35,548 nt of DNA from the IMG/VR virus record IMGVR_UViG_646564533_000012; one strand, given 5' to 3'. Source of the stretch: a virus. Lineage: Duplodnaviria > Heunggongvirae > Uroviricota > Caudoviricetes. How positions within the stretch are numbered: position 1 is the first letter of the stretch; every line of letters begins with the position of its first letter. A program made the translations under genes and the position numbers. The notes under the pieces are model-generated. The model did not search any database and was not told where the DNA came from. It saw only the letters and a list, made by a program, of their open reading frames with translations. Positions 1-35,548 of this stretch are shown here, in pieces.

Positions 1-61
1 GGTATCCGTTCTGCTGAAGTGTCATGGCGTTGATTTTACGGTGACTCTTCGACAGTGAAAA

Positions 62-92
62 GAAAAAAGGCCGCAGAGCGGCCATAAACACA
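62..92 (-). terminator. putative rho-independent terminator downstream of the int-cargo operon
   Basis: GGCCGC-N3-GCGGCC hairpin followed by a T-run when read on the minus strand; coordinates approx. Confidence 0.35.
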
Positions 93-189: not shown

Positions 190-606
190 TCATTCGCTCC
201 CCTCTTTTTCCTTATTTCGTTGAACGCCAATTGCGACACACGTACTAAGCAAATCTTTACATTTCTCTACGTCTTCAGACTTACGCAATTTGATGCTTTT
301 TACAGACTGCGGGCTACTGTCCGTAGCACGATACATCGTTATTTCAATATCATTTCGGTCTAAGAGTCCCATAATGGCTTTTGCAACCTCCACACCCTTC
401 TTCGCGAAATCAAAGAACAGAGCAAGTTTATATGGATTTTCGACGGAAAAAACTTCAATTTTGCTAAAACCAACATCGTGTCGAGAAAAATATTGCTCAA
501 CCTCATCTCGAAGTTCTGGATCGCAGACAATGTCTATTCTCCAGTACTGACCTAAATGCAAATCGCTATTAACTGTTTTTTCCACAACATCCTCCTTACC
601 CAGCAA
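190..606 (-). CDS. hypothetical protein, AT-rich cargo gene coupled to int
   Basis: 138-aa track ORF whose start overlaps the int stop; strong AAGGAGG sits at the int stop, with an in-frame GTG about 5 nt downstream (alternative start near 585); visibly lower GC than the phage core; no recognisable motif. Confidence 0.55.
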   Translation of the reverse strand: MLGKEDVVEKTVNSDLHLGQYWRIDIVCDPELRDEVEQYFSRHDVGFSKIEVFSVENPYKLALFFDFAKKGVEVAKAIMGLLDRNDIEITMYRATDSSPQSVKSIKLRKSEDVEKCKDLLSTCVAIGVQRNKEKEGSE

Positions 607-4608: not shown

Positions 4609-4930
4609 GAAACCAGAACATGCACACACAAAAAAACCGCTTGCCATGCCGCAATCGGTCAGGTTACATTTCCGCTGCACCTCATAAAACGGGTGCCGGG
4701 ATTCTCAACCCGATACAGAGCAAAGCGCATAACCGCGCCAGCGGTTTTTTTGTGCGTACTGTATTGCCACGTCTTTTTCGCGTCAGAATTATGGCGGGGC
4801 GTACGGGGCCGACTTCGGTCGGGCCGGATTCTTTGCTCTCCGGTGTTGAGAACCCTGTACGTCTCGCCACCCCGAGATTCTCAACTCTGGATGGTGAGCT
4901 ATTTCTATCACCGAGCAAAGAGGCCACACC
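4609..4930 (+). ncRNA. structured non-coding region (candidate small RNA or protein-binding array)
   Basis: About 320 bp with no credible ORF between coupled early genes; UUCG-loop hairpin (approx 4807..4825); three copies of TTCTCAAC, two direct and one inverted (approx 4702, 4845, 4878). Confidence 0.3.
4731..4753 (+). terminator. putative intrinsic terminator inside the early region
   Basis: AACCGC-GCCA-GCGGTT hairpin followed by TTTTTTTG; coordinates approx. Confidence 0.35.
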
Positions 4931-5161
4931 ATGGCAAACCGCAAACAACAGCGCGCATACGCTGCGCGTCGTCACATCCAGACTGAAATCAACCGTAGAC
5001 TTTTCCGCGCATCACGCGTCGCGCAAATCATGCACATCAATATGCTGCATGAGCGCAGCCACGCACTATCAAACATTTATTCCGCCTCTGTTTTCAGTTA
5101 TCTGGCGGATGATCTGCACGAGCTTCAACAGCTCATCCAGCAGCAAAACAAACTCCATTAA
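4931..5161 (+). CDS. hypothetical small basic protein
   Basis: 76-aa ORF with AAGAGG upstream. Confidence 0.45.
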   Translation: MANRKQQRAYAARRHIQTEINRRLFRASRVAQIMHINMLHERSHALSNIYSASVFSYLADDLHELQQLIQQQNKLH

Positions 5162-5233: not shown

Positions 5234-5623
5234 ATGATTGACGCTCATGACTTCACAAGATGGGTGCGCACACAGGACACCCGTCTGGCTCCCGTTCTTC
5301 AGGGATTATTTGATCTCTACATCCGTGGTCGTGACAACAGAGCACACACCACAAAACCGGAAAATGCAGACACCCTTTATTTCACAGTAGACGACTGCTA
5401 CCGCGTGGACTTCACACCACACGGGCTGGCGTTGCATTGCCTGACACCACACGGAGAATCACTGCTGGCGTATTACGACTCCCCGGCCTCCGTATTTGCG
5501 GCAATGCTGGCGCATCGCACTGCTGGCGGGTGTGCCTCGCTGAGTGAATACACCGCTGAATTTAACCGCCTTTCTGCCCTCTTCTCGCAGGAGTGGCAGC
5601 GCGTGACGGGATACCAGCCATGA
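5234..5623 (+). CDS. hypothetical protein coupled to A
   Basis: 129-aa ORF whose stop overlaps the A start (ATGA). Confidence 0.55.
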   Translation: MIDAHDFTRWVRTQDTRLAPVLQGLFDLYIRGRDNRAHTTKPENADTLYFTVDDCYRVDFTPHGLALHCLTPHGESLLAYYDSPASVFAAMLAHRTAGGCASLSEYTAEFNRLSALFSQEWQRVTGYQP

Positions 5624-8460
5624 GTGAGTTTGCATGGAGCTGGAATGAACCACGGCCAGCCATTGATCCGGCCAGATTTACGGAGCACAGGCAGGAAACT
5701 GAAACCGACCTACAACGCGCCATCCGTTACTACCTTGAGGCAGACAAAAAGGCTCTGGAAGAACAGGAAGCGAAGGAGGAAGCCTTTTTCGCACAATCCA
5801 CCGTGGGTAAAAAACTCATGGCATCCCTTGAGGAAGCCGGACAGCGTGAAAAGCTGGCACAAAGCATCATCAGCAAGCGTCAGGCAACAGAACAAGACCC
5901 GGTGGCCCGTGCTTTTGCCACACTGAAGGTGCTTCCCGTTTATCTGCGTGAACCTCTGAGCCGCCACCTCTCTTTCCTGCGCAAAAAACAGGAAGCCGAT
6001 CGCCAGAAAGGCAAAAAGAGCTGGCAGGCTGAACGCTACGCGCGCGGAACCCTGCGCAAAATATTCGAACGCCTGGACCGCACCGATCACCGCTGGCTGA
6101 CACCGGGTTATCGCTCCCTTGCCGGACGCGAACGCCTGGACGATTTGCTTTACCTGCCGCAGCTCAACAAACACCAGATACAGACGCTGGCCACCATGAC
6201 GGCGGCGATGTTCAGCAGCACCTTCGAAAAACTCTGCGATGGCTTTGGTGCGACTGATGGCGAACTGACCATGGATGTAACGCTGAAGGCGTATCAGATG
6301 CTGGCCCGCATGGCGTTACACCTGCACGCCATGCCTCCACATTATGACGCACTGACAACAGACAAAGACCGGAGGAACGAACCGGACACGGAGCTGCTGC
6401 CGGGCGCAACCCTTCGCCTGACCTGTGCGGAATGGTGGAAACGCAAACTGTGGCTGTTACGTTGCGAGTGGAGAGAAGAACAACTCCGCGCCGCCTGTCT
6501 GGTTTCCAGAAAAACATCACCCTATCTGAGCCAGGACGCGTTAAGCGAGTTTCGCGCACAGCGCGAGAAAACACGCGATTTCCTGAAAAGTTTCATGCTG
6601 GAAAACGAAGACGGGTTCACGATTGATCTCGAGACAGTGTATTACGCGGGAGTAAGTAACCCGGTTCACCGTAAGGCAGAAATGATGGCCACCATGAAGG
6701 GGCTGGAACTTCTGGCCGAAGCCCGTGGCGACAAAGCGGTGTTTCTGACTGTCACCTGCCCGTCAAAATACCACGCCACAACAGAGAACGGTCATCCGAA
6801 TCCCAAATGGAACGGGGCCACCATGCGCGACTCCAGCGATTACCTGGTTAACACGTTTTTTGCGGCGGTCCGCAAGAAACTGAACCGCGACGGCCTGCGC
6901 TGGTATGGCATCCGCACAGTGGAGCCTCACCATGACGGCACCGTGCACTGGCATATGATGGTCTTTGCTCATCCGGAAGAAATCGACACCATTGTGTCCC
7001 ACACCCGCGATATTGCCATTCAGGAAGACCGCCACGAGCTGGGCAATGATATTACTCCGCGCTTTAAGGTGGAGTATGTCGACGGCTCAAAAGGCACGCC
7101 AACCAGCTACATCGCCACCTACATCGGAAAGAACCTGGACAGCCGCGCCGTGGATGGCATCGACCCGAAAACGGGCAAGCCACGCGTTGACCACGAAACC
7201 GGAAAATCAATGGCCGAGAGCGTGGAACGCGCCATCGGCTGGGCACGCCTTCACCGGGTCCGCCAGTTCCAGTTCTTTGGCATCCCCTCCCGTCAGGTAT
7301 GGCGTGAACTCCGCCGCCTTGCCAGCCAGATGGCACGCAACCCGGAAGGCCCACAACGGCTGAAGGATGATGCAATGGATGCGGTACTCGCTGCCGCTGA
7401 TGCCGGGTGTTTTGCCACCTACATTGAGAAACAGGGCGGCGTACTTGTTCCACGCAAAGACTACCTGATTCGCACCGCCTACGACCTCGCAGATGAGCTG
7501 AACGATTACGGCGAACAGAGCGTACAGATTTACGGGATCTGGTCACCACTCATCGGGGAATCCTCCCGTGTGTGCACGCACCCGGATAACTGGAAGCTGG
7601 TAAGACGTAAACCGGAAGCGGAAGACAGCACCCGCGAAAATGGTTTTGACCTTCAGGGCGGCCCTGCCGCCCCTTGGACTCGTGGCAATAACTGTCCCCG
7701 TGTACAGGAAACGGACAACAACGGGACAGAACAGCCGGAAGAACGGCCAGCACCGTGGCCGCAGCTCCCTGACGGCGTTGATGTGGATGAATGGATGCGC
7801 TCACTGAAACGGCACGAACGCCGGGCGCTGATGCGTTCGCTTCGTGACAAACAGGCAAAAAACAGCAGTGATGAAATGCAGAGCTGGACACAGAGCCGCA
7901 AACAGCAGCGGCCTTTGCCTGATAACCACGAATTACTCGCTAAAGAATGGCGGGAGTCTGCTGAATCTCTCGGCCTGCATATCGGTGAACAACAGATGCA
8001 GCACCTGTTACGGGGCGGCAGTCTGTACGTTGACGGCAGCATCATTGCACCGCAGGGATTTGAAATTGTACGCAAACCGGATACCCGCCCGGACAGCCGA
8101 ATCACGCAGCTCTGGCAGCGCCTGAGCCGTAATCATGGCGTAAGCAGCACGGAGATCCGCCATAACCCGGTCGCCAGCTATCTGACACAGCTGGAGGCAT
8201 CAGACCCTGAAGCCGCCGCACGCCTGGCATCCACACTTCAGCAGGACCAGAACACCATGAAAACACCCGTTACCGTGCTTTCTGACATGCTGCGCGCCAT
8301 CCGCGACGCAGAGCACGCACAGAGAATCAGTGAAACCACTGAACGCGCCCGCCGCAAAGCAGACCTGCTGCGGGGTGGCCTGACCAGTGGAAACAAAAAA
8401 CAGACAGAAACGGGACTCACGAATCCCGCAAATGAGCAAAAAACGCGCAGCGATATATGA
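5620..8460 (+). CDS. A: replication initiation endonuclease A (rolling-circle, HUH superfamily)
   Basis: Track ORF trimmed to MSEFAWSW; HUH-type motif HWHMMVF and paired catalytic tyrosines in TPTSYIATYIGK; about 946 aa with a long low-complexity C-terminal extension. Confidence 0.93.
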   Translation: MSEFAWSWNEPRPAIDPARFTEHRQETETDLQRAIRYYLEADKKALEEQEAKEEAFFAQSTVGKKLMASLEEAGQREKLAQSIISKRQATEQDPVARAFATLKVLPVYLREPLSRHLSFLRKKQEADRQKGKKSWQAERYARGTLRKIFERLDRTDHRWLTPGYRSLAGRERLDDLLYLPQLNKHQIQTLATMTAAMFSSTFEKLCDGFGATDGELTMDVTLKAYQMLARMALHLHAMPPHYDALTTDKDRRNEPDTELLPGATLRLTCAEWWKRKLWLLRCEWREEQLRAACLVSRKTSPYLSQDALSEFRAQREKTRDFLKSFMLENEDGFTIDLETVYYAGVSNPVHRKAEMMATMKGLELLAEARGDKAVFLTVTCPSKYHATTENGHPNPKWNGATMRDSSDYLVNTFFAAVRKKLNRDGLRWYGIRTVEPHHDGTVHWHMMVFAHPEEIDTIVSHTRDIAIQEDRHELGNDITPRFKVEYVDGSKGTPTSYIATYIGKNLDSRAVDGIDPKTGKPRVDHETGKSMAESVERAIGWARLHRVRQFQFFGIPSRQVWRELRRLASQMARNPEGPQRLKDDAMDAVLAAADAGCFATYIEKQGGVLVPRKDYLIRTAYDLADELNDYGEQSVQIYGIWSPLIGESSRVCTHPDNWKLVRRKPEAEDSTRENGFDLQGGPAAPWTRGNNCPRVQETDNNGTEQPEERPAPWPQLPDGVDVDEWMRSLKRHERRALMRSLRDKQAKNSSDEMQSWTQSRKQQRPLPDNHELLAKEWRESAESLGLHIGEQQMQHLLRGGSLYVDGSIIAPQGFEIVRKPDTRPDSRITQLWQRLSRNHGVSSTEIRHNPVASYLTQLEASDPEAAARLASTLQQDQNTMKTPVTVLSDMLRAIRDAEHAQRISETTERARRKADLLRGGLTSGNKKQTETGLTNPANEQKTRSDI

Positions 8461-8501
8461 AGCGCGCACAAAACAGGCAAAAACGGGATTTCAGAATCCC
8501 G
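8411..8501. repeat. two near-identical 18-bp palindromes (CGGGAYTC-N2-GAATCCCG), about 73 bp apart, at the A/parM junction
   Basis: Approx 8411..8428 and 8484..8501, each within a longer conserved direct repeat; candidate ParR-binding centromere/operator, or minus-strand terminators. Confidence 0.45.
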
Positions 8502-8536
8502 TAAACGATTAATTAATCAACATAAGGAAAAGCGAC

Positions 8537-9496
8537 ATGAAAATTTGTATCGACGACGGCTCCACCAACATCAAGCTGGCATGGACTGAGAACGGCGAAC
8601 GCCGCAACGCCATCAGCCCGAACAGCTTCAAGTCGGAATGGTCTGCGCCGTTCGGTGGCACGCAGCCCGCGAACTACATGCTTGATGGCGTGCGCTATGG
8701 TTTTGATCCGGTCAGCGATCGCTTTGTCCAGACGACCGACACGCAATACCAATACAGCGATGTGAATGTCATTGCCATTCATCACGCGCTGGTCAAATCA
8801 GGCATCACACCACAGGAGGTGGATGTGGTTGTCACCCTGCCACTGAGCGAGTATTTCGACACAAACGCACAGCCGGACATGGCCAACATCAACCGCAAAA
8901 AAGCGAACGTTATGCGCCCGGTGGAGTACCAGAACGGCGAAGCATTCACTATCCGTAACGTGCGGGTTATGCCTGAATCCATTCCGGCTGGCTTTAAGGC
9001 ACTGGCTGACATGAGTCCGTTTGAATCCCTGCTGATTGTGGATTTGGGCGGAACCACGCTGGATGTGGCAAAGGTTCAGGGGCAACTGGCAGGTATCAGC
9101 CAGGTGTTTTGCGATCCACACGTAGGCGTTTCTCTGATGGCCGATGCCGTACTGTCGGTGATGGCCACTAACGGTATGCGCACCAGTCACCACATCGCCA
9201 ATACCATTATCGAACATCGCCATGATGAAGCCTGGCTGCGCCAGCACATCCACAATGACGCGCATTACGACAGCCTGATGGCGGTTATTCGTGAAAAGGA
9301 AGAAACACTGAAACAACGAGTGATCCGCGCGCTGGCGGGTTTTTCGGGTTACGGGCGGGTGATGGTTGTCGGTGGCGGGGCGGAGATTGTGGCACCCGCT
9401 ATCCGCGAAGCCTGCGGAGTTAATGCGACTTTCATCGCGGACGGGGTGCCACAGTTTGCTCTGGTTAATGGGCTGTACGCAATGGACAAGGAGTAA
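8537..9496 (+). CDS. parM: ParM/StbA-like actin-type segregation ATPase
   Basis: N-terminus MKICIDDGSTNIKLAW matches the plasmid R1 ParM phosphate-1 motif; similarity continues (SPNSF, YSDVNV, HHAL, LIVDLGGTT); 319 aa. Confidence 0.88.
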   Translation: MKICIDDGSTNIKLAWTENGERRNAISPNSFKSEWSAPFGGTQPANYMLDGVRYGFDPVSDRFVQTTDTQYQYSDVNVIAIHHALVKSGITPQEVDVVVTLPLSEYFDTNAQPDMANINRKKANVMRPVEYQNGEAFTIRNVRVMPESIPAGFKALADMSPFESLLIVDLGGTTLDVAKVQGQLAGISQVFCDPHVGVSLMADAVLSVMATNGMRTSHHIANTIIEHRHDEAWLRQHIHNDAHYDSLMAVIREKEETLKQRVIRALAGFSGYGRVMVVGGGAEIVAPAIREACGVNATFIADGVPQFALVNGLYAMDKE

Positions 9497-9500
9497 ACCA

Positions 9501-9812
9501 ATGACGACACCAACCAGACGGATAAGTTTCTATCTGAAGCCCGCCGCCGTCAAGAACGAAGGCGAAGCATGCACCTGGCTGGACAGCCTTACACCAGAAG
9601 CCCGCAAAAGCGGCCAACGTGTGGCTTTTCTGGCCGGGCTGGCACTTCTGAAAATGAATCCGGCAGAGGCTTACCGACTGGCTGCATGGGCTGACGATGA
9701 GGCGTTATCAGTGACACAAACCAGGACAGAACGCCCCGCGTCACAGCCAGTACCAACCTCACAGATAACCAGTCGGATGGCCGGAAATATCAGGGCGTTA
9801 TTTCCCGAATAA
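9501..9812 (+). CDS. parR: ParR/StbB-like centromere-binding adaptor
   Basis: Track ORF trimmed to the Met behind AAGGAG (MTTPTRRISFYLKP...); ISFYLKP, WLDSL, AFLAGLAL and NIRALFPE align with R1 ParR; immediately downstream of parM. Confidence 0.78.
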   Translation: MTTPTRRISFYLKPAAVKNEGEACTWLDSLTPEARKSGQRVAFLAGLALLKMNPAEAYRLAAWADDEALSVTQTRTERPASQPVPTSQITSRMAGNIRALFPE

Positions 9813-9819
9813 CACAACA

Positions 9820-9845
9820 TCAGGGCGCATCCGCCCTGATGACTT
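9820..9845. promoter_or_regulatory. perfect 10-bp-arm inverted repeat (CATCAGGGCG-N4-CGCCCTGATG)
   Basis: Lies between parR and the next gene; operator or terminator hairpin; coordinates approx. Confidence 0.35.
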
Positions 9846-9875
9846 TAATCCGGGAACATAAACAAGGGGGACACA

Positions 9876-10208
9876 ATGCAACACATTGACAGAGAAAAAG
9901 CGCAGCGACTGATTGAGCGGATGGAAGCGCTGGCGAAAGAAGAAAATGTCAACATCCAAAAAATAGCTGAATGTGGCCAGATAGTTCTTCGTCGTGAAAA
10001 AGACCTCAAACAACTGATGTCTGGCGAAACCAGCAAAACATGGACTTCAGGCGAGGAGACGATTTATTGCAGCTTCTGCAATAAATCTCAGTACGAAGTC
10101 ACAAAGGTGATTGCCGGACCGTCTGTTTGCATCTGCAATGAGTGCGTGGATTTGTCCAATGAAATTATCAGGAGAGAAGTGACAGACAAAAAGGGAAAAA
10201 ACGCATGA
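9876..10208 (+). CDS. small protein with ClpX-type C4 zinc-finger (ZBD)-like C-terminal domain
   Basis: [39 protein letters not shown] nearly matches the ClpX N-terminal zinc-binding domain as I recall it; charged, helical N-terminal half. Confidence 0.78.
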
Positions 10209-10543
10209 ACAGAAAACAAAAACAAGAGTTGAAATACTTTTTACGTAAAGAAATTGCCAGGCTTGAAGATGCAGAATCACAATCATCAGAAATTCCGTTC
10301 GGAATGGATATCAACGACGCCCGTATGCTCCAGGCATACCGCATAGCTCAGGCTGCACTACAGGCAAAACCGTCAGATGGACTGGTTAGAGCAGTACGAT
10401 TCTATGAACTGGTAAAGCGTGAGAATCCGCCAGCCGAAACCGGAGCATGGAAAGACGCTGTTGACTGGGTACTCAAAGAGGCTTGTCAGGTTGTAAACAC
10501 TGGCATCAAAGGAGACCTAGCCCAGCCTGCATCAAAGCTATAG
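10205..10543 (+). CDS. hypothetical protein coupled to the ZBD gene
   Basis: 112-aa ORF with ATGA overlap to the upstream gene. Confidence 0.5.
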
Positions 10544-10552
10544 AAATGAGCC

Positions 10553-10580
10553 AAAACGCCCTCTTCCAGGGCGTTTATTT
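10553..10580 (+). terminator. rho-independent terminator of the accessory operon
   Basis: AAACGCCCT-CTTCC-AGGGCGTTT hairpin followed by a T-rich run. Confidence 0.5.
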
Positions 10581-10583
10581 CAA

Positions 10584-11034
10584 TGCACAATAGTGCACAA
10601 ATTTGCACAATTTTTTTGAACGACTTTTTGCCCTTCCGGCCCGCGTGGCGGCTGGATCCGTCAAGGATCCGTGCGTGCACAAAAAAACGCGCTTTTTCTG
10701 CGCGCAGGTGACGGGGGAACAGCCCGCGTTTCAGGGGGTAAATAGCATCCCCTGAACGATGTCGCAGCAACACAACAGAATGGCTGTATTTCTCACGCTG
10801 AGCGTGAAAAAAACGTGAGGGCTTTTGATTTGATGGGGTGAAAGGTAAGGCCGTCAAAATCGCACTGAGGCGGCGAGAACATGCAGTTAACGCGGTGGGA
10901 TTGCGTAAGAGTCTGACCGTCGATGATGGCAATAAGCAGGAAAGCGTCGTGAAATTATCTGACTGATACAGGAGCTGGAGAGTCGGGGCATAAATTTTTT
11001 ATGCCCCGGCGAAGCAGCAGACAAGCGAAGCGCG
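10584..11034. other. putative cos / packaging-recognition region
   Basis: About 450-bp non-coding gap in the position of P2 cos, upstream of Q; TGCACAA x3 at 10-bp phasing (10584, 10594, 10604) plus a fourth copy near 10676; GC-rich GCGTGGCGG and GAGGCGGCG segments resemble 186/P2 cohesive ends; exact cos not assignable. Confidence 0.35.
10984..11009. terminator. strong hairpin just downstream of Q
   Basis: GGGGCATAAA-TTT-TTTATGCCCC, about 25 bp past the Q stop; coordinates approx. Confidence 0.3.
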
Positions 11035-12081
11035 TCAGGATGTGGGCTGGGTGTCCAGCAGTGCATAAGGGTTAAAGCGGATCACCTCTTCGCCAAGCCA
11101 GTCATTGATGTGCTTCATGGCCTCCATGACGGGCATCAGCTCGTTAATTGCGTAAACCCGCGCGGCCTTCTCCACATCACCAAACGCACTTTTTTCACCC
11201 GGCATCGCCCCCATCAGTTGCGGCGGGACACGGTGCGCAGCCAGCACATCATCACGGGATGCCGCCTTAACATTCATGAACTCATCCTTTGCGGTGATCT
11301 GCTGGAACGGCAAAATTTGCACCCCCTCTTTGCCCCCGTTGGGCGCATGAATGAGCACGTTTTTAAACGCACCACCACCACGTGCACCCTGTAACGTTTC
11401 TTTCAGGGAGTCCATGCTTTCGCGGTTTACCTGCGCTGCACCGATGTAGATGATGCACCCGGCGTGGGATCCGTTGTCGTAATACAGTTTTCTGAACATG
11501 TCCGCCGAATGAGACAGGCTGGCCGAGAGTAATGCGCCGAGATATTCCGGCATGCCGTAAATTTCCTGGTTAATGTCCGGATTCATCAGGTGGCACACTT
11601 TGCCAGGGCGAAACTGGAACGCGTCCTTGCCATCCTGCACATACCACCATGATTCAAGATCGCTTCCGCGTCGCATGTATTTCGCCAGTGCGTGCCGTAA
11701 TTTAAGCGGTTCGCAGAGCATATTGCTTCGAAGCTCAAGGAATGCGTTACCGAACACAAACCAGTCCAGCGCCAGCGCCGAGAAATCCTGCCGGGAAAGC
11801 AGCGGGTGCGGAATATAGCAACCGAGCAATACATTCCGCTTAAAGTAAAGCGCAGACTGATGCCAGGACGTTTGCCGGGCAGCTCTTGCCAGACCGTACC
11901 AGTCCACCGGGGTTTCATACCACCGCCCGTTATCAGCACAGTACATATTGTCCAGCAGGTCATGCCCGGTCAGGCGATAAGGACCATCAAATGTGAATGC
12001 ACTGAGCGATGATTCTTTCCTGAGCGCATCAGCGAGATCAATGCGTGAACTCATGCGCACTTTTTTATTTTTTCTGCTCAT
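11035..12081 (-). CDS. Q: portal protein Q
   Basis: 348 aa, position and size match P2 gpQ; stop/start overlap with P. Confidence 0.9.
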   Translation of the reverse strand: MSRKNKKVRMSSRIDLADALRKESSLSAFTFDGPYRLTGHDLLDNMYCADNGRWYETPVDWYGLARAARQTSWHQSALYFKRNVLLGCYIPHPLLSRQDFSALALDWFVFGNAFLELRSNMLCEPLKLRHALAKYMRRGSDLESWWYVQDGKDAFQFRPGKVCHLMNPDINQEIYGMPEYLGALLSASLSHSADMFRKLYYDNGSHAGCIIYIGAAQVNRESMDSLKETLQGARGGGAFKNVLIHAPNGGKEGVQILPFQQITAKDEFMNVKAASRDDVLAAHRVPPQLMGAMPGEKSAFGDVEKAARVYAINELMPVMEAMKHINDWLGEEVIRFNPYALLDTQPTS

Positions 12082-22320: not shown

Positions 22321-23672
22321 CAGTGAAATACTACGCCATTCTGACTAATCAGGGCGCGGCACGACTGGCTAACGCGACGATGCTCGGCAGTAAGCTGAAT
22401 CTGACGCAAATGGCCGTTGGTGATGCAAATGGTGTGTTACCAACACCAGACCCTGCACAAACAAAACTGATTAACCAGAAACGCATTGCACCGCTGAATC
22501 TTCTGAGTGTTGACCCTAACAATCAGAGCCAGATTATTGCGGAGCAAATCATCCCTGAAAACGAGGGAGGATTCTGGATCCGTGAGATTGGTCTTTATGA
22601 TGATGAAGGTGTACTCATTGCGGTGGCAAACTGCCCGGAAACGTACAAACCGCAGTTGCAGGAAGGCAGTGGACGCACCCAGACTATCCGCATGATTCTG
22701 GTTGTCACGAACACCGAAGCCATCACGCTGAAAATCGACCCGTCTGTGGTTCTGGCAACCCGCAAATATGTGGATGACAAAATCTCAGAGCACGAACAGT
22801 CACGACGTCACCCGGACGCCTCGCTGACCGCAAAAGGTTTTACTCAGTTAAGCAGTGCAATTAACAGTGAATCAGAAACACTGGCCGCAACACCGAAAGC
22901 GGTTAAGGCTGCATATGACCTGGCTAACGCGAAATATACTGCCCAGAACGCCACCACAACACAAAAAGGGATTGTTCAGCTCAGTAGCGCCACGAACAGC
23001 ACGTCTGAAACGCTGGCAGCGACACCAAAAGCTGTTAAGGTGGTAATGGATGAAACGAACAAGAAAGCACCATTAAACAGCCCGGCACTGACCGGAACGC
23101 CAACAACACCAACAGCGCCACAGGGGACTAATAATACCCAGATCGCAAGCACAGCTTTCGTTATGGCCGCGATTGCCGCACTTGTAGATTCGTCACCTGA
23201 TGCACTGAACACGCTGAACGAACTGGCTGCGGCGCTGGGCAATGACCCGAATTTTGCGACCACCATGACTAACGCGCTTGCGGGTAAGCAACCGAAGGAT
23301 GCCACCCTGACGGCGCTGGCGGAGCTTGCTACATCAGCAGATAAACTCCCATATTTTACAGGGGCAGATCGTGCCGCGTTAACCGCGTTGACAAGTGTTG
23401 GACGTGCCATTCTTGGTAAAACCAGCACTCAGGGCGTTCTTGATTACCTTGGTTTGGGGGAAGGCTCTGCGCTGCCCGTTGGTGTGCCCGTTCCATGGCC
23501 CTCAGCCACGCTGCCAACGGGGTGGCTGAAATGTAACGGCGCAGCATTTTCTTCTGAAATGTACCCCAATCTGGCAAAGGCCTACCCCACCAATAAATTA
23601 CCGGATTTACGGGGAGAATTTATTCGTGGCTGGGATGATGGACGCGGTGTGGACATGGGAGAGCATTATTAA
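22317..23672 (+). CDS. H: tail fiber protein H (constant N-terminal part fused to a frameshift-truncated C-terminal cassette)
   Basis: Conserved N-terminus MTVKYYAILTNQGAARLANA; internal SETLAATPKAVK repeats; enters the shared cassette block GLGEGSALPVGVPVPWP at 23451, then terminates early (…GVDMGEHY). Confidence 0.88.
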   Translation: MTVKYYAILTNQGAARLANATMLGSKLNLTQMAVGDANGVLPTPDPAQTKLINQKRIAPLNLLSVDPNNQSQIIAEQIIPENEGGFWIREIGLYDDEGVLIAVANCPETYKPQLQEGSGRTQTIRMILVVTNTEAITLKIDPSVVLATRKYVDDKISEHEQSRRHPDASLTAKGFTQLSSAINSESETLAATPKAVKAAYDLANAKYTAQNATTTQKGIVQLSSATNSTSETLAATPKAVKVVMDETNKKAPLNSPALTGTPTTPTAPQGTNNTQIASTAFVMAAIAALVDSSPDALNTLNELAAALGNDPNFATTMTNALAGKQPKDATLTALAELATSADKLPYFTGADRAALTALTSVGRAILGKTSTQGVLDYLGLGEGSALPVGVPVPWPSATLPTGWLKCNGAAFSSEMYPNLAKAYPTNKLPDLRGEFIRGWDDGRGVDMGEHY

Positions 23673-23881
23673 GCAGCCAAGAGGCTACAAATTTTTCTCA
23701 GCGTGCCGGAAATATAGGCGATGGTGCGGGCCACGCAATTAATTTTCATGATGGCATAGTCGGAAATCAGCCAGGATTTTCACGATTTAATTTCACCAGT
23801 AACTCTGTAGGCGATGGTATAAATTTTGTTGCTGTCAGGCCGCGAAATATCGCATTTAATTACATCGTAAGGGCAGCATGA
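23673..23881 (+). pseudogene. out-of-frame remainder of the H-attached tail-fiber cassette (type E copy)
   Basis: Downstream sequence encodes the rest of the cassette (…IAFNYIVRAA) in another frame; matches the intact inverted copy at 25969..26400 except for one A missing in GACAATGGG. Confidence 0.6.
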
Positions 23882-23888
23882 AAACGTT

Positions 23889-24395
23889 GGTTTGGGGGAA
23901 GGCTCGGCGCTGCCCGTTGGTGTGCCCGTTCCATGGCCTTCAGCCACGCCGCCAACGGGGTGGCTGAAATGTAACGGTGCAGCATTTTCTTCTGAAATGT
24001 ACCCCAATCTGGCAAAGGCCTACCCCGCCAATAAATTACCGGATTTACGGGGAGAATTTATTCGCGGCTGGGATGATGGGCGCGGGGTGGATGCTGGCCG
24101 CGCTTTGCTTAATTGGCAGCCACACACAATTTTGGATCATGCACACTATATGGAATTATGGACCGGGGATGGACTTGCCGCGGGAAGTACACGGGAAGGA
24201 GTAAACCCTGGAATACTGGCTACATACGGGGACGGGGGAATAGTTAAAACAGACGAACCCGGTTTAAAGGTGCCTTCCTCACTACGAGCCATTAGCTCTC
24301 GTAATGTAAAACGGTTTGGTGAAATTAGTGGAAATGTAGGTACAGAAACTCGCCCTCGCAACGTTGCATTTAATTACATCGTAAGAGCCGCATGA
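23889..24395 (+). CDS. alternative tail-fiber C-terminal cassette B (promoterless in this orientation)
   Basis: Begins with the shared block GLGEGSALPVGVPVPWPSATPPTGWLKCNGAAF, unique middle, shared C-terminus ETRPRN.AFNYIVRAA. Confidence 0.7.
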   Translation, partial: GLGEGSALPVGVPVPWPSATPPTGWLKCNGAAFSSEMYPNLAKAYPANKLPDLRGEFIRGWDDGRGVDAGRALLNWQPHTILDHAHYMELWTGDGLAAGSTREGVNPGILATYGDGGIVKTDEPGLKVPSSLRAISSRNVKRFGEISGNVGTETRPRNVAFNYIVRAA

Positions 24396-24402
24396 AAACG
24401 TT

Positions 24403-24882
24403 GGTTTAGGAGAAGGTTCTGCACTGCCCGTTGGTGTGCCCGTTCCGTGGCCCTTAGCAACACCACCAACGGGCTGGCTGAAATGTAACGGTGCAGCATT
24501 TTCTTCTGAAATGTACCCCAAACTGGCAAAAGCCTACCCCACCAATAAATTACCAGACTTACGCGGTGAATTTATCCGTGGCTGGGATGATGGGCGAGGA
24601 ATTGATGCGGCACGCGCTTTATTGAGCATTCAAAACGGGATGTTGGAAAAACACCGCCATATTGTTGTAGCTAACGATGGATATGACACAAAAGATGAAT
24701 GGGAGTTGGCTACGATTTTCAAAAAAACATATACACAAGGCAGGGGGCTTGATGCCACAAATACAGGAGGGAGTTTGATTCCATCACCAACGCTTCATTC
24801 ACGAGGAAGTATTGGTAACACAGGTGGTAGTGAAACCCGCCCCCGCAATATTGCATTTAACTATATCGTGAGGGCGGCTTAG
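24403..24882 (+). CDS. alternative tail-fiber C-terminal cassette C
   Basis: Same shared N-terminal block and C-terminal tail with a distinct, AT-richer variable middle. Confidence 0.7.
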   Translation, partial: GLGEGSALPVGVPVPWPLATPPTGWLKCNGAAFSSEMYPKLAKAYPTNKLPDLRGEFIRGWDDGRGIDAARALLSIQNGMLEKHRHIVVANDGYDTKDEWELATIFKKTYTQGRGLDATNTGGSLIPSPTLHSRGSIGNTGGSETRPRNIAFNYIVRAA

Positions 24883-25500: not shown

Positions 25501-25958
25501 TATGCGGTTCTCACAATATAATTGAAGGCAATATTGCGTGGGCGGGCTTCATTCCCCCCTGAGGATTCCGTTCTGTATTGACTGGTAAATCTACCGTTAA
25601 TTGCACCTTGCCGGACGGCGTTATCTGTCGACAACAGACTATCCCCTCCTTTGTCATTTGGCACCAGTACCGTGTTATCCCACGCGTCCCATGACCGAAT
25701 ATTATGATAATGACTTCCTGTTAACCACCCCTGCATGCTTAAGATGCCCCTTCCGGCATCCACCCCGCGCCCATCATCCCAGCCACGGATAAATTCACCG
25801 CGTAAGTCTGGTAATTTATTGGTGGGGTAAGCCATTGCCAGTCTGGGATACATTTCAGAAGAAAATGCTGCGCCGTTACATTTCAGCCACCCCGTTGGCG
25901 GCGTGGCTGAGGGCCATGGAACAGGTACACCAACAGGCAGTGCAGAGCCTTCCCCCAA
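25500..25958 (-). CDS. alternative tail-fiber C-terminal cassette D
   Basis: Shared N-terminal block on the minus strand, unique middle, shared C-terminus; stop overlaps the tfa start. Confidence 0.7.
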   Translation of the reverse strand: MGEGSALPVGVPVPWPSATPPTGWLKCNGAAFSSEMYPRLAMAYPTNKLPDLRGEFIRGWDDGRGVDAGRGILSMQGWLTGSHYHNIRSWDAWDNTVLVPNDKGGDSLLSTDNAVRQGAINGRFTSQYRTESSGGNEARPRNIAFNYIVRTA

Positions 25959-25968
25959 ACCAACGTTT

Positions 25969-26454
25969 TCATGCTGCCCTTACGATGTAATTAAATGCGA
26001 TATTTCGCGGCCTGACAGCAACAAAATTTATACCATCGCCTACAGAGTTACTGGTGAAATTAAATCGTGAAAATCCTGGCTGATTTCCGACTATGCCATC
26101 ATGAAAATTAATTGCGTGGCCCGCACCATCGCCTATATTTCCGGCACGCTGAGAAAAATTTGTAGCCTCTTGGCTGCTTAATAATGCTCTCCCATTGTCC
26201 ACACCACGTCCATCATCCCAGCCACGAATAAATTCGCCCCGTAAATCCGGTAATTTATTGGTGGGGTAGGCCTTTGCCAGATTGGGGTACATTTCAGAAG
26301 AAAATGCTGCGCCGTTACATTTCAGCCACCCCGTTGGCAGCGTGGCTGAGGGCCATGGAACGGGCACACCAACGGGCAGCGCAGAGCCTTCCCCCAAACC
26401 AACGTTTTCGTCTTTATCCCTACCTATACCAACTATGTATTTTTCACGAAACAA
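25969..26454 (-). CDS. alternative tail-fiber C-terminal cassette E (intact copy of the cassette fused to H)
   Basis: Shared block starts at 26400; the track ORF extends upstream to 26454 (MFREKYIVGIGRDKDENV); sequence equals the H-attached cassette apart from the 1-nt indel. Confidence 0.7.
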   Translation of the reverse strand: MFREKYIVGIGRDKDENVGLGEGSALPVGVPVPWPSATLPTGWLKCNGAAFSSEMYPNLAKAYPTNKLPDLRGEFIRGWDDGRGVDNGRALLSSQEATNFSQRAGNIGDGAGHAINFHDGIVGNQPGFSRFNFTSNSVGDGINFVAVRPRNIAFNYIVRAA

Positions 26455-27595: not shown

Positions 27596-30412
27596 TCAAT
27601 CTTTATCGTAAAAACTGCCACGTCCGGCACGGGCGCGCCGTTCCATCTCTGCCCTGACCATTTCACCGACCAGTTTCGCCAGTTCGCGGGGATTCTGCGT
27701 AACAACGTTATGCAGATGAACATGAATTTCACCGCCAAATCCGGAGGCAACAGGCTCCCGGTTACGGGAAGTTACAGGAACTGATGCCACTGGAGATCGT
27801 ATGGCCTCCGCCACCGGGCGGGAGCTGGCCGCAACAACAGGGACCAGCGCCGGAGGCAGCGGAGCCGGGACCACGGGTGTGATATTAATTGCGGGGGCAG
27901 GCTTACTGACCTGCGCAATCTTCCGCTCCTGCCACTCCCCACGAACAGCAAGTGCGCGGGGCAGGTTCTTAAAGACAATATCGCCGGGGCCAATGCGTTT
28001 TTTCGTCTCATCAACCAGCTTACCTGTGTTATCAGCAATTTTGCTGAGTCTGCGTAGCGTCCCGGTATTGCTGTCTGTGAGCGGTTTGTTGTCTTTGGGT
28101 TTATCACCTCCGGTGCCATTGCCATTTTCCACAGGCTTCGGCGGATTGATTTTCGCAAGGTCCCCCTGAAGCAAGGCAACCTTGTCCTGAAGAATGGCCG
28201 CACGCTGTGCGTCTTCGATTTTCTTGCGCGCCCTTTCCGCTTCATCCGGAAGGACGCCAAGTTTTTCAAGTATCCACGCCAGCGTATCCAGTAGCATTTT
28301 TGCAGGTGTCAGAACAAGCTGTAACGCACCGCCAAGAACGTTACCGAATATCTCGCCAGCACTGGTACATTTATCCAGCGTTTCCTTGCTGGACTCCATC
28401 GGTGACAGCAGCGATTTAAACCAGTTAAACACCTGGCTGATCCCGCTTCCGATTGCGTCAAAAACAGGACCAAACCGTTCAAAGGTTTCGCGCAACGGGG
28501 TCAGCCTTTCCATAATCCCGCTGAACACCCCGGCAAAAAATGCCCTGATGGGATCCCAGTATTTCCAGATAAGAACGGCAGCTCCGGCAAGCGCAGCCAC
28601 GATAAGACCAACCGGACTGAACAGCGCCCCGATAGCGCCTCCCAGTAAAGAAACGGAACCCGTCACCATTCCCCACAGCGCAGGCAACACCCTGACGACA
28701 TTCATTGACCGGGTAAGAATGTCAAAACCAAGACGCAGGGTGGCCAGCTTCCCGTAAAGCACCCCAATAACCAGCGACAACGAGCCAATCGTTGCAGTCA
28801 TTGCCAGCAACGCACCGCCTGCTATCAGTAGCTGGCGCGTCAGTACCGGATGGGCCTGCGCCAGCGAGGTGATTTTTTCAAGCACCCGCGTGAGCCACTG
28901 CGTGACAGAACGCAGCGGACCGTCAACCAGATCACTGATGCGAATACGAAGACCTTCCCATGCGCTGTCGAGATTTTTCAGGTCCCCATCAAGATTATCG
29001 GCCATTACTTTTGCGACGCGATCGGCCTCTCCCCTTGCCCCCTGCAATTCTCTGGTCAGTTTTTGCAGCTCTCCTGAACCAGCCGCCGCAACAAGCGTCT
29101 GCAAACCAACGAACGCCTCTTCTCCGGCGATGTCCTTGAAGAAGGAAACCTGGTCCACCTGTCCGTATTTTTGTGTCGCCTTATAGAGATCAAGCAGCAC
29201 ATCCTCCATCGGGCGCATTTTGCCTCTGGCGTCAGCAACTGACACCCCCAGCTCTTTCAGTGCATCAGCCGCAGCTTTTGGCGGTGATGCAAGGCGGGAC
29301 AGACTTGCGCGCATGGCCGTACCAGCATCGCTTCCGCGAAGACCATTATTGGCAAGCATCCCGGCCATGGCCGCCGCTTCTTCAAGACTGATACCAAGTT
29401 TTGCGGCAACCGGACCGGTATACTTCATGGTTTCGCCCAGCGCGCGTAAATCAGTATTGGTCCGGGTGAATGCCGCTGTCAGCGTATCGCCAACACGGTC
29501 CATTTGATCGGCTGTCAGGTTGAACTGTGTGAGGATATTGGAGCCTATATCAGCCGTCTCGCCGAGTTCGACGCCACCTGCCAGCGCCATATTAAGAACA
29601 CCGGGCAATGCGGCCTGAATGGCCTGCGGAGTAAAACCAGCCATTGCCAGAAAGCTCTGCCCACTGGCGGCATCACTCGCAGTAAACTGTGTTTCAGAGC
29701 CAAGTTTTAACGCCTGCTCACGCAGCGCCTTAAACTGCGGGCTGTTTTTGTCGATTCGCGTCAGTGCCTGAACGCGGGACATCTCTTTGCCGAACCCGAT
29801 CGCAGGCTGCAAAAAACGCCCGGCAGCATAGCCGCCCGCCGCTGCCGCACCAATTGCCAGCGCACCACCTGTTTTCAGTTTCCCCGCGGTTTCCTGCGCG
29901 CGCGAATACCGCTCACGCGCCCGCGTTACACGCGCAAGCGCCTGCCGTTCGCGTTCAAGCTGGTTGTTGTACTGTTCGGTGCGTCTGATGGCCTGCTGGA
30001 TGGTGTTATCGCTGCCTGTCAGGGAAATGCCGTGTCGTTTCAGTTCTCCGCCAAGTTCCCGCATTTTCTGAATTTCCCGTGTGCGCGATTCATTCAGGCG
30101 TTCAAGCCGGGTGCTTAACTGCTGCATCAGCTTTTGTTGTTTTTCGCTGAGCACTGTACCCGTGCGTTGTAACTGATTAAGGGCGTTAAGCTGGCGTCGT
30201 GCTTTCACGATGCCCGCATCCGCTTTACTGACAGCGTCACGGGCGCGCTCAAATGAACGCGCCTGACGCTCGAGATTTTTGATCGCCCCCTGCGTTCGCT
30301 GGATGGAGTCACCAAACTGCCCCATCAGGCGGCGGGCGTTTTCGGCAGGCCGGGTCAGCCTGTCAACGGCGCTGAAAGCGACCCGGATATCAAGAGTCTT
30401 CATTGTCTGCAT
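27596..30412 (-). CDS. T: tail tape measure protein T
   Basis: About 940 aa, helical N-terminal half and Gly/Ala-rich hydrophobic core typical of tape measure proteins; start trimmed to MQTMKTL after the E' stop. Confidence 0.9.
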   Translation of the reverse strand: MQTMKTLDIRVAFSAVDRLTRPAENARRLMGQFGDSIQRTQGAIKNLERQARSFERARDAVSKADAGIVKARRQLNALNQLQRTGTVLSEKQQKLMQQLSTRLERLNESRTREIQKMRELGGELKRHGISLTGSDNTIQQAIRRTEQYNNQLERERQALARVTRARERYSRAQETAGKLKTGGALAIGAAAAGGYAAGRFLQPAIGFGKEMSRVQALTRIDKNSPQFKALREQALKLGSETQFTASDAASGQSFLAMAGFTPQAIQAALPGVLNMALAGGVELGETADIGSNILTQFNLTADQMDRVGDTLTAAFTRTNTDLRALGETMKYTGPVAAKLGISLEEAAAMAGMLANNGLRGSDAGTAMRASLSRLASPPKAAADALKELGVSVADARGKMRPMEDVLLDLYKATQKYGQVDQVSFFKDIAGEEAFVGLQTLVAAAGSGELQKLTRELQGARGEADRVAKVMADNLDGDLKNLDSAWEGLRIRISDLVDGPLRSVTQWLTRVLEKITSLAQAHPVLTRQLLIAGGALLAMTATIGSLSLVIGVLYGKLATLRLGFDILTRSMNVVRVLPALWGMVTGSVSLLGGAIGALFSPVGLIVAALAGAAVLIWKYWDPIRAFFAGVFSGIMERLTPLRETFERFGPVFDAIGSGISQVFNWFKSLLSPMESSKETLDKCTSAGEIFGNVLGGALQLVLTPAKMLLDTLAWILEKLGVLPDEAERARKKIEDAQRAAILQDKVALLQGDLAKINPPKPVENGNGTGGDKPKDNKPLTDSNTGTLRRLSKIADNTGKLVDETKKRIGPGDIVFKNLPRALAVRGEWQERKIAQVSKPAPAINITPVVPAPLPPALVPVVAASSRPVAEAIRSPVASVPVTSRNREPVASGFGGEIHVHLHNVVTQNPRELAKLVGEMVRAEMERRARAGRGSFYDKD

Positions 30413-34141: not shown

Positions 34142-34807
34142 ATGAATATGCAAATTTTTATCGCACCAGCAGCCACAGTTGCTGCAGTCTGCCTTGCTGC
34201 ATATTTTGCTTTACGAAATGAACGTAAAAAGAAAGCACTTGAGATTAGAACAACTCAACTAGATCGAATATCAGAGCTAGTAAACCGAGCATCTACCAAT
34301 TTGATGCAATATACAGGTACTCTTGCCTCTATACTGGAAGCGCACGCCAAAGATAATTATCTACCGAACAAAAAATTTGACATTAATGTAATTAGCAAAT
34401 GGAAAGATTGCCTCGATGAGAGTGAGGTCTGGGCGATTGATAGACAGCAACTAAGAACATGTCAGCACAGTCTGGAGTTTCATCGTGAAAAAGAATGGGC
34501 TGAATGGAAAAAAATAATTCCACCATTACTTGATAAAATTGACCAATTTTTTCTCATATCTAAGCCAGGGCAACCTGTTACGTTTATAAATGGCCAAAAC
34601 AAAACAGCTGATGAACTACTTGTTTTCTCAAGATATTTGAGAAAACAAACAGCAGAAATTGAATCAGTACGTCAGCTGTTACTTTCTCAAATGAGAGAGG
34701 AATTCATCGAGTTAACTAGCTTTGAACCTGTCACAATGTTTAGCTTATTTAAATCAATAAAGAAAAATGTCATGCAATTTTTCTGTATCAGTGCTCTTAA
34801 AAATTGA
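34142..34807 (+). CDS. hypothetical membrane-anchored protein, AT-rich cargo gene
   Basis: 221 aa with N-terminal TM helix IFIAPAATVAAVCLAAYFAL; markedly AT-rich against flanking D and ogr; own AT-rich upstream region and downstream terminator. Confidence 0.6.
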   Translation: MNMQIFIAPAATVAAVCLAAYFALRNERKKKALEIRTTQLDRISELVNRASTNLMQYTGTLASILEAHAKDNYLPNKKFDINVISKWKDCLDESEVWAIDRQQLRTCQHSLEFHREKEWAEWKKIIPPLLDKIDQFFLISKPGQPVTFINGQNKTADELLVFSRYLRKQTAEIESVRQLLLSQMREEFIELTSFEPVTMFSLFKSIKKNVMQFFCISALKN

Positions 34808-35217: not shown

Positions 35218-35277
35218 CAGGCAGAATTGCCGGAGTAACAAAAAAGCGATAGATTACGCGCGGGTGCCTTTCGGCTG

Positions 35278-35490
35278 ATGGTCGGAGGGAATACCCGAAG
35301 GCCAGATGTGGAAAGGCCCCGGAAAACATCTCTGTTTAACCGAGGCCCTAACCGCATTACCTTGACAAGTGAAAGGTTAGCGCCTCTCCGGAAAAGGAGC
35401 AAGTGCTATGTCGCAAAAATCGCTTACGGCCATCACGTTCTGCGTGACGGCAATCCTCATCATCTGGATGTTGCACGGTTCGCTGTGTGA
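35278..35490 (+). CDS. mok-like overlapping reading frame of the hok locus
   Basis: 70-aa ORF starting upstream of and overlapping the hok-like frame, as in hok/mok/sok loci. Confidence 0.35.
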   Translation: MVGGNTRRPDVERPRKTSLFNRGPNRITLTSERLAPLRKRSKCYVAKIAYGHHVLRDGNPHHLDVARFAV

Positions 35491-35548
35491 AATACGGATG
35501 AGCTTCTGGGGAGCGGAGTTTGCGGCGTTCTTACAGTGTAAGCAGTAA
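35408..35548 (+). CDS. hok: Hok/Gef-family type I toxin (46 aa)
   Basis: MSQKSLTAITFCVTAILIIWMLHGSLCEIRMSFWGAEFAAFLQCKQ: one TM helix then the SLCEIR...AAF signature of Hok/Gef toxins; below the track cut-off; stop is the last codon of the window. Confidence 0.6.
   Translation: MSQKSLTAITFCVTAILIIWMLHGSLCEIRMSFWGAEFAAFLQCKQ

Follow-up and report, generated by a model that had tools for sequence, protein, structure and literature searches.

Genes and features of the parMR locus

The DNA analysed here is the 35,548-nucleotide (nt) stretch of IMG/VR virus record IMGVR_UViG_646564533_000012 (hereafter the window, meaning that stretch at its full length), a P2-like prophage in which two genes of the plasmid partition type, parM and parR, follow the replication gene A and lie behind a pair of palindromic repeats (Table 1). 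The source of the window is the prophage of Escherichia coli O55:H7 CB9615 (100% match over the module stretch). An integrase gene and structural, lysis and regulatory genes of P2 type are present, and this gene content confirms the P2-like, integrase-bearing element recognized in a first-pass annotation made from the letters alone. That annotation had also proposed a partition pair of the plasmid R1 type after gene A, which profile and structure-database searches bear out (matches to 1mwk, PF06406, PF21523 and PF10784). Phage P88 (NC_026014; Xuanwuvirus, Peduoviridae) is 99.0% identical in DNA to window positions 8380-9850, and its ParM, ParR and A proteins are 99.7%, 98.1% and 96.6% identical, respectively, to those of the window (the last over amino acids (aa) 104-955). 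This near-identity and the shared gene order A-parM-parR-ClpX zinc-finger gene place the element in Xuanwuvirus. In P2, the interval equivalent to that between A and the portal gene Q holds orf91, tin and old.

Table 1. Positions of the partition genes and associated features, counted from the first letter of the window
Feature	Position	Strand	Description
Replication gene A	5593-8460	+	P2-type HUH rolling-circle initiator, 955 aa; Pfam Phage_GPA, E = 1.6e-130
Predicted ori nick site	7660-7700 (about 7673), in gene A	+	Predicted from homology to the mapped P2 nick only
Repeat unit 1	8394-8435		Contains palindrome 8410-8429, ACGGGACTCACGAATCCCGC; inside the 3' end of gene A; candidate ParR-binding site (parC/operator)
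Repeat unit 2	8467-8508		Contains perfect palindrome 8483-8502, ACGGGATTTCAGAATCCCGT; 34 nt 5' of the parM start; candidate ParR-binding site
parM	8537-9496	+	Actin-like segregation ATPase, 319 aa; N-terminus MKICIDDGSTNIKLAW
parR	9501-9812	+	Centromere-binding adaptor by family match, 103 aa; PF10784 (Plasmid_stab_B, StbB/ParR), E = 4.4e-24
Terminator-like hairpin	9818-9841		GC-rich, detected on the minus strand; right boundary of the module
Portal gene Q	11035-12081	-	

Gene A and parM are on the same strand and separated by 76 bp, and the last codons of gene A overlap the first palindrome. The true start of parR is the ATG listed in Table 1, four bases past the parM stop and preceded by a GGAG that overlaps the parM 3' end; the program-made list of open reading frames (ORFs) had placed it at a TTG at 9366. 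The hairpin that bounds the module on the right folds at -20.5 kcal/mol on the plus strand and -25.8 kcal/mol on the minus strand (z of about -4.6 to -4.8). The predicted ori lies approximately 0.8 kb upstream of the candidate centromere and parMR, and gene A, predicted ori, candidate centromere and parMR make up one compact block.

Assignment of ParM and ParR to the R1 family

Both proteins are clear members of the R1 ParM/StbA and ParR/StbB families, as judged by sequence comparison. ParM matched the Pfam domains StbA_N (PF06406, E = 1.8e-82) and PF21523 (C-terminal domain, E = 1e-68), PHROG 691 'partition protein' (E = 1e-90) and, over residues 2-316, the structure of R1 ParM (1mwk, E = 1.3e-92). 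Full-length identity to an R1-type ParM is 47%, and the motifs for phosphate binding, catalysis and adenosine contact are all conserved; at the sequence level IDDGSTNIK, VMPESIPAG, DLGGTTLD and GGGAE are unchanged relative to R1 ParM.

In ParR a predicted DNA-binding domain makes up the N-terminal part (about aa 1-66) and is followed by a hypervariable linker (about aa 67-92) and by a conserved C-terminal tail, NIRALFPE. The ratio of non-synonymous to synonymous polymorphism (pN/pS) follows this division, at 0.146 in the N-terminal domain, 0.72 in the linker and 0.047 in the tail. Across 37 homologues the tail, N-I-(R/Q)-x-(L/F)-F-P-(E/K/D), is nearly invariant, and the C-terminal motif is shared with the ParR of an IncL/M plasmid. 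The published ParR plan consists of a conserved N-terminal domain, a linker and a constrained tail (PMC5016525), and the predicted architecture matches it, including what would be the flexible, conserved ParM-binding tail. A profile built from the 37 homologues found pB171 ParR (2JD3) as its best match of solved structure, weakly (E = 0.018), and a single-sequence search of the PDB with ParR gave no match.

Signs of recombination within parR were also seen. The body of the protein is a mosaic (9555-9790, codons ~19-97), its N-terminal domain occurring in two main types, and among P88-like phage records ParM identity is 95.6% or more (98.4% or more with one exception), whereas that of ParR falls to as low as 52%. 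DNA matches in ST131 and O157 strains end about 55 nt into parR, where many strains have an exchange point. The 3' part of parR seems to be exchanged along with the cargo that follows it, yet residues 1-18 and the C-terminal tail are constant.

Conservation, distribution and origin of the module

Conservation was assessed among related loci and in complete genomes. Purifying selection acts strongly on parM: its 71 distinct alleles gave a pN/pS of 0.057, against 0.25 in the adjoining end of gene A, and parM is intact in 87 of 88 related loci. Signs of decay consist of the remaining parM, truncated at 182 aa, a few loci with truncated parR, and the roughly 2% of E. coli records with a match in which the module is only partial. 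Set against the pN/pS values of parM and of the ParR tail, the intact parM genes and the retention of the module across five genera, they make little case for a decaying or neutral hitch-hiker devoid of current function, a reading that the selection data effectively refute.

Occurrence in phages was surveyed in 50,697 phage records, P88-type A being defined by at least 85% identity to the A protein of the window. parM was present in all 14 records with P88-type A and in none of 368 other P2-like records, a strict 1:1 association. The A proteins of those 368 records are less than 60% identical to that of the window and align over aa 84-811 only; the C-terminal extension (codons ~812-955, 8030-8460) is absent from them. 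Elsewhere among phage records, R1-type ParM was found in D6, a plasmid prophage of P1-like type (48% identity), and, as a very distant relative, in two Acinetobacter phage records. The module is present in 1304 of 5426 complete E. coli genomes, 1279 of which have the stretch of candidate parC plus parM covered to at least 80%, and further copies extend across Escherichia, Citrobacter, Salmonella, Hafnia and Cronobacter. Scans with single proteins reached near-identical relatives only, in addition to the Hafnia copy.

The first-pass annotation had placed the module in the accessory slot of tin/old in P2. Its constancy in P88-type records and the intactness of parM show that it is not variable accessory cargo of that kind; hypervariability begins past parR, in the interval up to Q (9813-11034), where 62 related loci have 26 different gene contents. 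The same annotation had offered capture of a plasmid stability module as one explanation, which holds in a deep evolutionary sense but fails for a recent event: among the ParM homologues of at least 5000 plasmid records, none was at 60-95% identity, and a recent plasmid donor is not indicated because the closest genuine plasmid ParM is just 52.9% identical. Six plasmid records with ParM identity above 95% are P88-like prophages deposited as 'plasmid'. The module is an old, phage-specific branch of the R1 ParM family and a lineage-defining core trait, neither recently captured nor variable cargo.

One further ParM match, 98% identical, was found in a 226-kb contig (NZ_JBQPOM010000071.1) whose label, Vagococcus sp. 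WN89Y, names a Gram-positive genus, and is probably due to assembly contamination or mislabelling.

The palindromic repeats upstream of parM

The two 42-nt direct repeats upstream of parM (Table 1) are 79% identical and 73 bp apart from start to start, each containing one 20-bp palindrome. The pattern ACGGGATT-N4-AATCCCGT has these two matches only in the 35.5-kb window (0.08 expected by chance), and two matches were obtained in 0 of 100 shuffles. In relatives the consensus of both palindromes is a perfect 8+4+8 arrangement, ACGGGATT-CACA-AATCCCGT, with almost invariant GGGA/TCCC cores and variable 4-nt spacers; palindrome 1 of the window has minority alleles at 8416 (C), 8421 (G) and 8429 (C). 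The cores and the 73-bp spacing are kept in the Hafnia relative (ParM 94% identical, the most diverged obtained), in which flanks and spacers are changed. Among IMG/VR contigs bearing the palindrome, parM lies within 200 nt of it in 105 of 116. A search for repeats inside, around and downstream of parMR found no cis repeat other than the 42-nt pair, which is accordingly the only credible, though unproven, candidate for a centromere or operator. The first-pass suggestion that these palindromes are a centromere or operator therefore stands as to a real, non-random repeated element, and as to its role only as a candidate, because the palindromes can also be read as leftward terminators.

Specifically, the palindromes may be tandem intrinsic terminators of leftward transcription that protect the early replication operon against antisense RNA, in which case ParR would bind elsewhere or act only as a regulator. 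Both score as terminator-like on the minus strand, with hairpins of -10.5 kcal/mol (palindrome 1) and -10.4 kcal/mol (palindrome 2) followed by U-rich tails, UUUCUGUCUGUUUUUU and UUUUUGCCUGUUUUGU, and an R1-like iteron array was absent from the repeat searches of the module. The 42-nt repeat is moreover asymmetric, with a conserved A-rich flank on one side that has, at site 1, the lowest diversity of the classes compared (0.019); a one-sided flank of this kind is expected for a hairpin with a tail and not for a symmetric protein site. Better terminator candidates, however, are already available to the minus-strand genes on the right, at 10705-10687 and 9841-9818, and the minus strand at 8540-9812 holds nothing that requires termination. 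This family as a rule has split centromeres that flank the stretch before parM, R1-type and IncL/M plasmids having two clusters (in IncL/M also 73 bp apart), and the A/C-rich flank of the repeats is similar in composition to R1 iterons. Termination in place of ParR binding is thus rather unlikely, and the two functions are compatible with each other.

A role of the palindromes as the replication origin was considered and rejected, the homologue of the P2 nick site lying at about 7673 inside gene A. In the P2 record the nick is at 29892, between GCCGCGCCTC and GGAGTCCTGTCAATAACTGT, and the homologous stretch of the window reads GCCGCCCCTTGGACTCGTGGCAATAACTGT. Around this predicted nick the conservation of DNA with P2 exceeds that of the encoded protein.

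Proposed function of the module

We consider it probable, with real room for doubt, that parMR and its upstream element are a functional type II ParMRC-like segregation module, core to the P88-like lineage, that acts on extrachromosomal circles of the phage. ParR dimers would bind the repeated element upstream of parM, and their conserved C-terminal tails, to judge from their conservation and from R1, would capture the ends of ParM filaments, so that ATP-driven filament growth would separate ParR-bound phage DNA circles. Filament formation by ParM and stabilization of a low-copy replicon by the phage module are both predictions of this kind. The substrate would be an extrachromosomal circle because the phage normally lives integrated; such a circle would be present once the phage has infected a cell or excised, at the time when protein A copies it from the ori in gene A. 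parMR would accordingly be switched on together with the early replication operon while the DNA is episomal, and would be silent in the quiescent lysogen. Co-expression with gene A is probable because the genes share a strand across the 76-bp gap in which scans detected no plus-strand terminator and no recognizable promoter: in the stretch where R1-type systems have a promoter autoregulated by ParR, inside parC, a sigma-70 consensus scan (8200-8540) gave no promoter-like site, and by eye a weak TTTCAG-17-ATTAAT overlaps palindrome 2. The benefit may be that non-integrated or excised copies are kept from loss at division, as by srpMRC for SXT/R391, or that replicating genomes are spread or positioned for efficient replication, as by AlpAC for CGP3, or both.

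Several points weigh against this proposal. The ribbon-helix-helix fold expected for the N-terminal domain of ParR gained no support from structure prediction: the AF2 monomer of ParR, predicted from the 37-sequence alignment, reached a mean confidence (pLDDT) of 59, with helices at residues 20-61, disorder at 62-86, a helix at 87-100 and no N-terminal strand, and a Foldseek search of the PDB with this model returned nothing meaningful. The timing of expression is deduced solely from the absence of consensus signals. The upstream element comprises two palindromes (four half-sites) in place of the ten 11-bp iterons of R1 (checked on an R1-type cassette), that is, two 42-nt units where about ten tandem direct repeats upstream of parM characterize parC, and ring models of the ParR-parC complex use about 12 ParR dimers (PMC5016525). 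Each 42-nt unit fits a leftward intrinsic terminator, as a minus-strand hairpin with a U-rich tail, equally well. The arms of the palindromes are nearly as diverse (0.048-0.064) as synonymous sites (0.078), and phylogenetic footprinting of the palindromes gave no clear signal because total divergence is too shallow (synonymous polymorphism about 0.08). No co-variation was found between palindrome variants and ParR body type, because residues 1-18 are the same in both ParR types. In the literature that was searchable, no functional study of P88-type parMR was found.

A role other than partition was also considered, namely incompatibility with, or exclusion of, plasmids or phages whose centromeres are related, anti-phage defence, or a repurposed cytoskeleton that benefits the host. 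The module sits at the edge of the slot that in P2 holds the exclusion genes tin and old and adjoins hypervariable cargo; ParR specificity sets plasmid incompatibility (PMC9426499), and a chromosomal ParMR pair is reported to have been repurposed for cell shape (bioRxiv 10.1101/2025.06.27.661541). PADLOC, however, returned no defence match for ParM, ParR or the two proteins downstream, and the phage palindromes were not found in the R1-type or IncL/M centromeres examined. The module is invariant although the real cargo turns over, it is tied one to one to the type of replication gene, its ParM motifs are complete and the ParR tail is retained, all of which make such a role highly improbable.

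Integration state and lifestyle

The CB9615 prophage is flanked by btuC and ihfA. A 25-bp direct repeat, AAAGAAAAAAGGCCGCAGAGCGGCC, forms the core of attL at window positions 59-83, and its second copy (attR) lies 262 bp past the end of the window; the uninterrupted btuC-ihfA site was found in E. coli Sakai. Because of this location, the att repeats and the empty site, the CB9615 copy is an ordinary integrated prophage. The first-pass annotation had read the partition genes as a sign of extrachromosomal, phage-plasmid maintenance, a view that gains no support from this integrated copy or from the chromosomal location of 1442 of 1444 copies in complete E. coli genomes. When the proposed comparison of circular episomes with chromosomal flanks was made, it turned up one circular record of 34,461 bp, which is ambiguous, and the flanks of btuC and ihfA with att repeats for the window copy.

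Facultative phage-plasmid life, in which protein A replication and ParMRC partition would support a stable low-copy plasmid lysogen besides integration, was evaluated on this basis. The window holds the gene set of a phage-plasmid, that is, complete phage genes plus parMR, with a replication gene of phage-type A, and P88 has been listed among phage-plasmid candidates for its partition and replication genes, both states being suggested (Pfeifer et al. 2021, PMC7969092). The circular record, NZ_CP148288.1 (pZ1323PEC0009-2, from a cat E. coli isolate; PLSDB, RefSeq), is a complete P88-like phage with integrase, parMR and hok. Matching records number 1305 against 1304 genomes, with two copies on plasmid records, from which one genome appears to have its sole copy on a plasmid record. 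An addiction locus of the hok/sok kind adds to the case, since together with parMRC it provides homologues of both R1 stability loci (parA and parB): a Hok/Gef toxin gene is present at 35408-35548 (PF01848, above cut-off), inside the prophage and left of attR, with a sub-threshold match to sok RNA at 35262-35421 (48 bits, gathering score 59, E = 1.6e-9), and hok is present in P88 and pZ1323PEC0009-2 as well. The P2-like phage KS14 has been shown by experiment to be a plasmid prophage.

Maintenance of the prophage outside the chromosome, however, was not evident: the window copy is integrated, nearly all copies in complete E. coli genomes are chromosomal, and the single 34.5-kb circle could equally be expected of an induced, replicating phage. 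Most PLSDB matches are not phage-sized episomes but huge 'plasmid' records (228 kb-1.4 Mb) or a linear contig of degraded prophage. KS14, moreover, relies on plasmid RepB and ParA and not on protein A and ParM. Protein A of P2 type drives rolling-circle lytic replication and is not known for copy-controlled plasmid replication. Stable plasmid lysogeny is thus quite unlikely for the P88-like lineage. A related scheme, in which an actin-like spindle distributes the monomeric circles produced by rolling-circle replication during a facultative partitioned episomal (carrier or plasmid) state, using a minimal palindromic centromere unlike iteron arrays, is likewise doubtful.

A 26.7-kb Shigella boydii 'plasmid' was examined as a possible episome and rejected, as it is a linear prophage fragment riddled with IS1.

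Cargo and other features of the prophage

In the window two overlapping ORFs occupy the slot downstream of parR: one encodes 110 aa with a C4 zinc finger of the ClpX type (9876-10208; PF06689, E = 7e-16), the other 112 aa (10205-10543). PADLOC gave no match for these two proteins or for two other cargo ORFs. Two ORFs at the ends of the prophage, one near int (190-606, minus strand, 138 aa) and one near ogr (34142-34807, plus strand, 221 aa), had no match in Pfam or PADLOC and are likely further cargo.

In the tail-fibre region, direct repeats at 23402-24620 and 25736-26409 (267 nt, three copies, and 235 nt, two copies) adjoin a gene for a DNA invertase, an arrangement suggestive of a host-range cassette that is shufflon-like or invertible.

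In the early region, isrK (4677-4751; Rfam, 62.8 bits) and a C4 antisense RNA (4787-4874; 78.5 bits) lie directly upstream of a gene for a 76-aa protein of the 'Derepression' family (4931-5161, PF25738) that is similar to P4 epsilon. Positions 4677-5161 look like an antirepressor module of the P1/P4 type, controlled by RNA, within a P2-like early region. P88 is inducible by mitomycin, and this module may be the reason for such inducibility in P88-like phages, in contrast to P2. The O157 Sakai prophage Sp13, which is P2-like and has an epsilon-like gene, excises, circularizes and replicates (PMC2669165).

Significance and comparison with known systems

The finding of a partition module in this phage is correct but was already known. 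The window module is essentially no different from that of P88, whose gp17 and gp18 are annotated as 'plasmid segregation protein ParM' and 'partition protein', and Citrobacter phage phiSM and E. coli prophages in RefSeq have the same parM-parR module. Pfeifer et al. 2021 (PMC7969092) drew attention to the partition genes in P88 and suggested 'episomal and integrative states'; the phiSM paper lists one gene of the module as a 'fitness' ORF, and parM and parR are annotated in RefSeq and GenBank. What the present analysis describes is an R1-family ParMRC module under strong purifying selection in an integrating phage that about 24% of the complete E. coli genomes contain, O157, O26, O104 and ST131 strains among them. 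If the module does stabilize or position extrachromosomal phage DNA, the principle known from SXT/R391 and CGP3, by which integrated elements invest in partition machinery for a transient circular phase, would extend to a very common enterobacterial phage, and P88-like phages would offer a genetically tractable E. coli system for partition of that phase.

Relative to parA (stb) of R1/R100, the phage module is alike in gene order, in having a cis element upstream and in the division of that element into two blocks, with ParM 47% identical over its full length and ParR 33% identical over the N-terminal 61 aa. It differs in having two 20-bp palindromes where R1 has ten 11-bp direct iterons in two clusters, in a ParR of 103 aa against 117 aa that is unalignable past aa 61, in having no recognizable promoter between the blocks, and in that the replicon is an integrating phage with a rolling-circle initiator. 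The closest plasmid parMR is that of the IncL/M plasmid pKPC-2fe2, with ParM at 52% identity; its positions 2350-2472 hold T-rich 10-bp iterons in two clusters with starts 73 bp apart, the same spacing as the phage palindromes.

The srpMRC genes of SXT/R391 are strictly conserved, expressed only on activation and stabilize the excised form (Carraro et al. 2015, PMC4489591). Like the phage module, srpMRC is a ParMRC-type system in an integrated, integrase-bearing element, and it acts on an excised circle replicated by the rolling-circle mode. SrpM and SrpR are, however, distant from R1 ParMR, SrpR having no recognizable domain, whereas the phage pair clearly belongs to the R1 family; the host of srpMRC is an integrative and conjugative element, and its function has been demonstrated, that of the phage module being predicted. 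AlpAC of the Corynebacterium prophage CGP3 (Donovan et al. 2015, PMC4446434) is induced early on excision, is linked to circular phage DNA and is required for that DNA to be replicated efficiently. The AlpAC/alpS system shares with the phage module an integrated prophage setting and an actin-like protein co-transcribed with a DNA-binding adaptor that binds upstream of its own operon, and is set apart, by its published description, in its actin-like lineage, adaptor-first gene order and Gram-positive host.

Two phages complete the comparison. Burkholderia phage KS14 is P2-like, as P88 is, and carries a partition gene; its plasmid prophage state is established, but this phage uses ParA and plasmid RepB and does not integrate. 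Phage D6 encodes a StbA-type ParM that is 48% identical to ParM of the window, but it is a 91-kb P1-like plasmid prophage, whereas P88-like phages keep the integrase and A replication of P2 and are found integrated.

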